Source: Escherichia coli (GTDB lineage: Bacteria; Pseudomonadota; Gammaproteobacteria; Enterobacterales; Enterobacteriaceae). Taken from it: a DNA stretch of 64,000 nt. The notes below the pieces were generated by a model. That model had not been told where the DNA came from. It worked only from the letters and a program-made list of their open reading frames with translations, and made no database searches. The stretch is from NCBI RefSeq assembly GCF_045037415.1, contig NZ_CP173438.1; one strand, written 5' to 3'. The position numbers and the translations under genes are program-made. This document shows, in pieces, positions 39,836 to 40,746 of this stretch (position 1 is its first letter; the number at the start of each line of letters is the position of its first letter).

Positions 39836-40459
39836 TTAATCCAGTTGGGTAATATCAAAAGCGGCGCGGTCGATCACCGCAATGATCTTTTTTATTTGTG
39901 CATCAGTGATATCGCTCTGGTTGACGCATAAATCCAGCACCGCTTTAAAATTATCCAGCGCCCGCTTCATTTGCGGGTTCTGGCGCAGCGCAGCGCCAAC
40001 GCAACGCGCTTTGATGCGTTCTTCAATCATCTCTACCTGTTCGCGGTTTTCTTCCAGCCACTGCGCGCCTTGTTCGGTCAGCGCAATCTGCTTCTTACCA
40101 CCTTCCTCTTCGCGGATGGTAATCAGCGACTGCTCCTGCAGAAAATCCAGCGTCGGGTAGATGACGCCCGGGCTTGGGGTGTAATTCCCCTGGGTCAGAT
40201 TTTCAATCGCTTTAATCAACTCGTAACCGTGGCTGTCATCGCGCGAGAGAATATCCAGAATCACCAGACGCAATTCACCGTGACCAAAGAAACGTTGCCG
40301 ACGACCGCCGCCGCGACCGTGGCGACCACCGCAGCATTGACCGTGTTCATGCTGGTGACCGTGTCCGCAGTGCTCGTGTTCTGACTTCTCACCTTTGCAG
40401 CAGCCCTCATGGCGTGGCTGGCCTTCATGTTTACAACACCCTTCGTGATGATGGCTCAT
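39836..40459 (-). CDS. yqjI: PadR-family Ni/Fe-responsive repressor YqjI with His/Cys-rich N-terminus
   Basis: 207-aa ORF MSHHHEGCCKHEGQPRHEGCCKGEKSEHEHCGHGHQHEHGQCCGG... then PadR winged helix. Confidence 0.9.
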   Translation of the reverse strand: MSHHHEGCCKHEGQPRHEGCCKGEKSEHEHCGHGHQHEHGQCCGGRHGRGGGRRQRFFGHGELRLVILDILSRDDSHGYELIKAIENLTQGNYTPSPGVIYPTLDFLQEQSLITIREEEGGKKQIALTEQGAQWLEENREQVEMIEERIKARCVGAALRQNPQMKRALDNFKAVLDLCVNQSDITDAQIKKIIAVIDRAAFDITQLD

Positions 40460-40746
40460 ATCAGCCTCCTTTTGCTTAATTAGATATATCTAATTTATAT
40501 CTGATATGAGCATTACTGCAAGTACAAAAATGATTTTTAAACGCAGGTTTACTCAACATGTAGGCCGGATAAGGCGTTCACGCCGCATCCGGCATTGAGC
40601 AATGATGCTTGATAAGAGGTTGCGCGTCTTATCAGACTACAGATATATCAGTGCTACAAATCACTTGCATTTATCATGATTAACAATCATTATCATTTGT
40701 GGAATTTATTTAGATATATCTGATTACCATCACGAAGGCGATAACA
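40460..40746. promoter_or_regulatory. yqjI/yqjH divergent control region: three GATATATC-core palindromes, Fur box, embedded REP
   Basis: AATTAGATATATCTAATT (40478-40495, perfect 18-bp palindrome); cAGATATATCag (about 40640-40651); TTAGATATATCTGA (40709-40722); Fur-box-like GATTAACAATCATTATCATTTG (about 40677-40698); REP at 40559-40600. Confidence 0.6.

Follow-up and report, generated by a model that had tools for sequence, protein, structure and literature searches.

The closest described system to the region considered here is its counterpart in Escherichia coli K-12, for which dual repression by Fur and YqjI (NfeR), with relief by nickel, has been published (Wang 2011, 2014, as relayed by the papers that cite them). 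NfeR has been described as a repressor of the neighbouring ferric reductase gene nfeF, with repression relieved by excess nickel, and deletion of nfeR in Klebsiella raised nfeF expression 85-fold (PMC7981267). The nfeF gene has also been placed in the Fur regulon (PMC9501238, PMC9508795), and each of the three refers back to Wang, Wu & Outten 2011 and Wang et al. 2014.

Several known systems share parts of this arrangement. PadR/padC and LmrR/lmrCD, with autoregulated PadR-family repressors, likewise combine a winged-helix PadR domain, palindromic operators over promoters and a repressor gene divergent from its target, but their ligands are phenolics or drugs, whereas NfeR responds to a metal and has a long Cys/His tail at its N terminus. 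Fur-repressed iron-acquisition promoters have the same AT-rich Fur box over the -10 element, and nfeF, as a member of the Fur regulon, differs from them in having a second, nickel-responsive repressor at a downstream operator. Finally, BIME/REP elements (Y and Z2 REPs; REP325/naRNA4) offer the same Y-type consensus hairpin placed head-to-head with a Z2-like REP, although here the pair lies between divergent promoters and not at gene 3' ends, its second REP is degenerate and its naRNA4 score is sub-threshold. Earlier work on the locus reportedly found two YqjI sites about 200 bp apart, both needed for full repression, with an extended footprint at the yqjI-proximal site, and mutagenesis of the REP is said to have had no effect on YqjI regulation.

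Here we analysed the corresponding region in a stretch of 64,000 nucleotides of an E. coli chromosome (the window). We estimate a probability of roughly 0.9 that it is the known nfeR(yqjI)-nfeF(yqjH) divergent control region, with NfeR acting on two operators (sites II and I), Fur acting on the nfeF -10 element and nickel releasing NfeR. In what follows, NfeR repression, nickel relief and Fur control are taken from the literature, and the gene identities, features, statistical excess, conservation and geometry come from the present analysis.

Results

The nfeR-nfeF locus in the window

The genes run in the order aer, nfeR (yqjI, minus strand), nfeF (yqjH, plus strand), tRNA-Ile, mug and rpoD, and the order from aer to mug agrees with RefSeq genomes. 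The coding features are as follows.

39836-40459, minus strand: nfeR (yqjI) coding sequence, 207 aa, an open reading frame annotated nfeR in RefSeq; predicted PadR-family repressor with an N-terminal metal-binding tail
40465-40471, minus strand: nfeR Shine-Dalgarno sequence, AAGGAGG, read directly from the sequence
40747-41511, plus strand: nfeF (yqjH), NADPH-dependent ferric-siderophore reductase (open reading frame; RefSeq annotation; Pfam)

The gene ends at 40459 and 40747 enclose the 287-bp divergent intergenic region (40460-40746) that a first-pass annotation of this DNA had described, and its gene names yqjI and yqjH were right as well. A 331-bp query over the intergenic region matched RefSeq genomes at 100% identity, the genes on either side there being named 'DNA-binding transcriptional regulator NfeR' and 'NADPH-dependent ferric chelate reductase NfeF', and it was found in 5421 of 5426 complete E. 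coli genomes. The encoded NfeR is the orthologue of K-12 NfeR, with 99% amino-acid identity and the same position divergent from nfeF. It belongs to the PadR family according to Pfam (PF03551, residues 67-136, E = 4.3e-15); NCBIfam PadR models also match, with scores below their curated cut-offs, and the closest solved structures in a PDB search were PadR proteins, no structure of NfeR itself being found there. NfeF matches FAD_binding_9 (PF08021, 9.6e-36) and SIP (PF04954, 1.7e-25), which places it among the siderophore-interacting proteins and ferric reductases.

The window comes from a non-K-12 E. coli strain, with a haplotype that it has in common with Nissle 1917. Compared with the K-12 yqjH-yqjI region, it shows the same locus, genes and 287-bp length, identical site II, Fur box and site I 14-mer, and a REP pair at the same place, but the intergenic region is only 89% identical overall (91% over the 331-bp query).

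Promoters, Fur box and operators

The control features of the intergenic region, of which the promoters were assigned by reading the sequence, are listed below; the last four have no strand assigned.

40494-40521, minus strand: putative nfeR promoter, -35 TTGCAG (40516-40521), 16-nt spacer, -10 TATAAA (40494-40499)
40665-40693, plus strand: putative nfeF promoter, -35 TTGCAT (40665-40670), 17-nt spacer, -10 CATTAT (40688-40693)
40678-40699: predicted Fur box, Fur-like GATTAACAATCATTATCATTTG, overlapping the nfeF spacer and -10
40478-40505: putative operator 'site II', the perfect 18-bp palindrome AATTAGATATATCTAATT (40478-40495) followed by a second TATATCTGAT unit (40496-40505)
40710-40723: putative operator 'site I', TTAGATATATCTGA, between the nfeF -10 and the Shine-Dalgarno sequence, with one mismatch to the site II 14-mer
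40642-40649: third GATATATC core, candidate 'site III', abutting the element REP2 (described below) and 15 nt upstream of the nfeF -35

Since a strict consensus scan called no sigma-70 promoter in the nfeR/nfeF region, the promoter hexamers, which we infer from weaker matches and conservation, are given as putative. The residues or bases that would make contact are putative as well. The nfeR promoter has a (C)TTGCA element that is conserved in most genera; its putative -10 overlaps the second site II unit, and the expected start would fall under the palindrome. At the nfeF promoter, CTTGCA and AATCATTATCATTT are invariant across genera with a fixed 21-bp offset. Site I would lie about 13-20 nt past the expected nfeF start, in front of the GAAGG ribosome-binding site.

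Nowhere else in the 64 kb does a sequence come as close to the 7-1-7 Fur consensus as the Fur-box-like sequence noticed at first reading; from this consensus its core TAACAATCATTATCA (40681-40695) departs at two positions. Scored against the classical 19-mer GATAATGATAATCATTATC it matches at 13 of 19 positions, a level that is not unique in the window. On its consensus match and its overlap with the promoter we class it as a predicted Fur box.

Both outer palindromes stand where they had been reported, AATTAGATATATCTAATT next to the nfeR start and the related TTAGATATATCTGA next to the nfeF start. Their shared core GATATATC occurs four times in the 64 kb, with 0.34 copies expected, and three of these copies lie inside the 287-bp intergenic region; none of 100 shuffles reached four copies. 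All three intergenic sites (site II, the third core and site I) have the 9-mer AGATATATC in common. A search with the 14-mer returned only two matches, sites II and I, the third core not being among them. The fourth copy of GATATATC lies inside mug (41884-41891); its flanks do not resemble those of the operators, and chance could account for it.

The second TATATCTGAT unit of site II is offset from the palindrome by one helical turn (11 bp). Read toward its own gene, each of the two operators begins with TTAGATATATC, so that the two promoter-operator modules appear to mirror each other.

Comparison across six genera

Scanning for NfeR relatives, we obtained 32 loci in Escherichia, Citrobacter, Enterobacter, Lelliottia, Superficieibacter and Raoultella, and analysed 30 of them as divergent nfeF-nfeR pairs. 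Site II was present in all 30 as GATATATCTAA followed 11 bp later by TATATCT (GATATATCTAA-nn-TATATCT). Site I was conserved in all genera as TTAGATATATC, with TTCGATATATC in a few loci, and the Fur box with the -10 was conserved as AATCATTATCAT(T/C)T, as was a -35 element of the CTTG type that precedes the Fur box by 21 bp. The first-pass annotation had named absence of the palindromes from orthologous regions as grounds for abandoning its reading; both outer palindromes and the Fur box were found in all orthologous regions compared, namely eight E. coli haplotype samples and 30 loci from six genera, and the reading is not refuted on this count. The GATATATC-type palindromes, conserved in six genera, are putative NfeR operators.

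Although the intergenic length varied from 146 to 287 bp among the loci, the distances to the start codons were kept: site II lies 16-23 bp from its ATG and site I 22-26 bp from its ATG (35 bp in locus L035), and site I follows the Fur box by 26-29 bp. Helical phasing between site II and site I was not seen across genera, the distance ranging from 9.2 to 21.9 turns, and operators that are out of phase between genera are a poor fit to a simple phased-loop model.

The 17-33% GC content around the sites raises the odds of AT-rich repeats, and one could accordingly take the palindromes for incidental AT-rich promoter sequence, or for the target of another regulator, with the Cys/His tail of NfeR unrelated to control of this region. 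However, the cores are invariant across six genera in which the flanking spacer cannot be aligned, their orientation and distance to both genes are fixed, and repression of nfeF by NfeR is published (PMC7981267). We regard an origin by chance or through another regulator as barely credible, and keep to NfeR acting on sites II and I.

Two further repeats were considered and set aside. An 11-nt perfect inverted repeat (40440-40450 / 40728-40738) puts the same CATCACGAAGG into both mRNAs, as the nfeR codons His-His-Glu-Gly and as part of the nfeF leader including the ribosome-binding site. We rejected the idea that it marks a common RNA site or an old inverted duplication: only Escherichia has it at full length, and His-Glu-Gly codons together with a Shine-Dalgarno sequence account for it; the sharing of this 11-mer is probably coincidental. 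Another 11-nt perfect inverted repeat (40454-40464 / 40501-40511) spans the nfeR start codon. A conserved stem was rejected here as well: the repeat is broken in some E. coli haplotypes, is absent in other genera and lies upstream of the putative transcription start, and such a stem would sequester the AUG only in a transcript starting upstream of the putative nfeR promoter.

The REP pair and variation within E. coli

The REP that the first-pass annotation had seen in the middle of the region is there, but it is a head-to-head pair rather than a single element (neither member has a strand assigned).

40560-40594: REP1, Y-type REP hairpin, an inverted repeat with copies in the window and the genome
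40607-40640: REP2, degenerate Z2-like REP in inverted orientation, forming a two-hairpin fold and a BIME-like pair with REP1

We take REP1 to be Y-type and REP2 to be Z2-like from the consensus sequences of these REP types. The REP core GCCGGATAAGGCGTTCACGCCGCATCCGGC (40564-40593) has four copies in the window within three mismatches, with none expected, and E. coli genomes hold a median of 38 such places each. REP1 and REP2 fold as two hairpins (z = -5.7), and as a repeated GC-rich palindrome with two REPs in inverted orientation the pair belongs with the REP/BIME elements. We set aside its identification as the REP325-derived RNA naRNA4 (Rfam RF02564), for which 40563-40638 scored 56.4 bits and thus below the gathering score of 59.5; the likeness reflects shared REP content only. 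A second REP cluster, also naRNA4-like (46.7 bits), occupies 39736-39830, where the 3' ends of aer and nfeR converge. Indels occur in this aer-nfeR spacer, of which only about 65% can be aligned to K-12, and the aer 3' end is only 91.6% identical to K-12, compared with about 98% for nfeR and nfeF. Elsewhere in the window, and unrelated to the nfeR-nfeF region, a Sib antitoxin RNA (Rfam SIB_RNA, 142 bits) lies at 61862-62011 on the plus strand.

Within E. coli we compared eight representative sequences and ran three whole-collection searches. Three haplotypes were distinguished, with genome counts that are approximate and derive from identity bands.

Window-type haplotype: about 1,200 genomes, REP2 segment present, third core GATATATC
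K-12-type haplotype: about 2,480 genomes, REP2 segment present, third core GACATATC
'Short'-type haplotype: about 1,700 genomes, REP2 replaced by unrelated sequence and region 11 bp shorter, third core GATATATC

Site II and the Fur box were invariant in all eight samples, and site I differed at one flank base in one of them. Identity to K-12 is 100% in the site II block (40460-40510) and about 98% in the flanking genes, whereas the central region (40511-40641) is unusually divergent for E. coli, at 71-82%: 71% in the spacer (40511-40558) and 82% in the REP2 segment. A fully identical site II block beside a spacer at 71% is a sharp within-species footprint. The distance between the cores of site II and site I takes two values that differ by a single 11-bp step, 230/231 or 219/220 bp, corresponding to about 21.9 and 20.9 helical turns in the two length classes. 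The 'short' type matches E. albertii, and since E. albertii and Escherichia sp. E1V33 carry this arrangement, it is probably ancestral in the genus.

As to whether the REP is conserved across strains, a check proposed with the first-pass annotation, the answer differs for its two members: REP1 was found in all E. coli samples and is degenerate in E. albertii and Escherichia sp. E1V33, but REP2 is replaced by unrelated sequence in about one third of E. coli genomes (the 'short' haplotype). Outside Escherichia, no REP words were found in the Citrobacter, Enterobacter, Raoultella, Lelliottia and Superficieibacter loci, all of which keep both operators.

REPs favour the spaces between convergent genes (PMC1525189), and their placement between divergent promoters is therefore unusual, as had been remarked at first reading. 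This placement, the retention of REP1 in every Escherichia sample, the exact 11-bp difference between the length classes (230/231 or 219/220 bp between operators) and the stable DNA hairpins could all be taken to mean that the pair has an architectural function, bending the spacer to let the operators communicate, for example as a cruciform or as a site for gyrase, HU or IHF. However, five genera keep both operators with no REP at all, and REP2 is replaced in about a third of E. coli genomes. Mutation of the REP, too, reportedly left YqjI regulation unaffected. An architectural role is in our judgement improbable. Because the pair is specific to the genus Escherichia, it would stand outside the conserved control logic, and the comparison shows it to be an apparent genus-specific passenger beside the two putative NfeR operators.

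The third core

The first-pass annotation had also reported a third, degenerate copy of the palindrome between the outer two. A copy is indeed present at 40642-40649, but its GATATATC core is intact in this strain; K-12-type strains have it in mutated form, and outside Escherichia it is not conserved. With a 59-nt probe and a 60-record sample taken evenly over the 5,421 matching genomes, we found about 55% of E. coli to carry GATATATC, about 43% GACATATC and about 2% other alleles; from the identity bands and this sample together, the share of GACATATC is put at about 43-46%. MG1655 (K-12) and BL21 have GACATATC, the K-12 allele being T40645C, Nissle 1917 has the form of the window, and one Escherichia genome reads GATGTTTC. 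Its intact state in E. albertii, Escherichia sp. E1V33 and about 55% of E. coli makes an ancestral origin in the genus probable. Citrobacter, Raoultella and Superficieibacter retain of the core only a TATATC half-site followed by an A-tract, and the 147-bp Enterobacter region lacks it.

The third core might function as an additional NfeR operator just ahead of the nfeF -35, either bridging sites I and II or tightening repression of nfeF, in which case the two-site model from K-12 under-describes such strains. Chance would hardly place a third exact 8-mer within 287 bp, the shared 9-mer AGATATATC links it to both operators, its probable ancestry in the genus fits this reading, and the half-site of the other three genera also sits just upstream of the -35. 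On the other hand, nearly half of E. coli, including K-12 and BL21, has a mutated core, as does the one Escherichia genome with GATGTTTC, and regulation in K-12 is reported to be intact. The flanks read ACA...AGT without the conserved TTA...TAA arms, the spacing to the -35 is off by 5 bp relative to that of TATATC in other genera, and Enterobacter lacks the core in its 147-bp region. We therefore find a third operator doubtful, and regard the core as at most an auxiliary or optional, polymorphic and Escherichia-specific feature added to sites II and I.

A larger conjecture would be that the ancestral Escherichia region had three NfeR cores, of which the third was lost when a T mutated to C in the lineage of K-12, the strain used in all experiments, so that natural isolates regulate nfeF differently, and that the 11-bp length step preserves operator phasing. 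We consider this somewhat less likely again than a third operator as such. If it held, natural isolates could show tighter repression of nfeF, or different bridging, compared with the published two-site model.

The N-terminal tail of NfeR

Metal sensing had been suggested at first reading from a His/Cys-rich tail with a tandem HEGCCK repeat. The codons concerned are the following.

40286-40459, minus strand: N-terminal Cys/His-rich tail of NfeR, about residues 1-58 (from the translation)

NfeR begins with MSHHHEGCCKHEGQPRHEGCCK, which bears out the composition and both HEGCCK copies, and the His/Cys tract lies N-terminally, upstream of the PadR domain (residues 67-136). The copies are not strictly tandem, however: they occupy residues 5-10 and 17-22, 12 residues apart, and TRF found no DNA tandem repeat under them.

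In a comparison of orthologues (loci L009-L040), tail length and Cys content varied strongly between genera. The Escherichia tail has two HEGCCK copies and further Cys residues, and Citrobacter tails of about 30-90 aa have one to four HEGCC copies. Enterobacter and Lelliottia tails consist only of MRHEHEGGG, with no Cys, and those of Raoultella and Enterobacter sp. kpr-6 are His/Glu-rich without Cys. Since the tails of Enterobacter and Raoultella lack cysteines, nickel sensing through tail cysteines may not be general across the family.

Discussion

Dual control of the siderophore reductase gene by Fur and YqjI, as proposed in the first-pass annotation, is supported and is the published model (PMC7981267, PMC9501238, PMC9508795). 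In this model NfeR, a PadR-type winged-helix repressor, would bind two conserved TTAGATATATC operators that have the same orientation relative to each gene. Binding at site II, in the nfeR -10/start region and extended by the half-site 11 bp away, would give autorepression, and binding at site I, just downstream of the nfeF promoter, would repress nfeF. Fur-Fe2+ would independently bind the box over the nfeF -10. Nickel bound by the N-terminal Cys/His tail would lower the affinity of NfeR for DNA, leading to derepression of both genes. The central stretch of about 140 bp, a fast-evolving AT-rich spacer with the Escherichia-specific REP pair, would have no part in this logic.

Our data also fit what the earlier experiments reportedly found, namely the two sites, the extended footprint and the lack of effect of REP mutagenesis. 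The conserved second unit of site II, phased by 11 bp, would explain the extended footprint reportedly seen there, and other genera do without the REP pair.

The nfeR-nfeF control system is thus already known, and the features described here are real, conserved and ordinary, and call for no new interpretation. What the present analysis adds is descriptive: the cross-genus footprint, the REP haplotypes, the third-core polymorphism and the extent to which the NfeR tail varies. With iron and nickel signals, through Fur and NfeR respectively, converging on one siderophore-reductase promoter, the locus is an example at textbook level. The comparative data amount to a clean phylogenetic footprint of the bases that matter, and they supply ready-made natural variants, in the form of GATATATC versus GACATATC at the third site and of NfeR tails with versus without cysteines.
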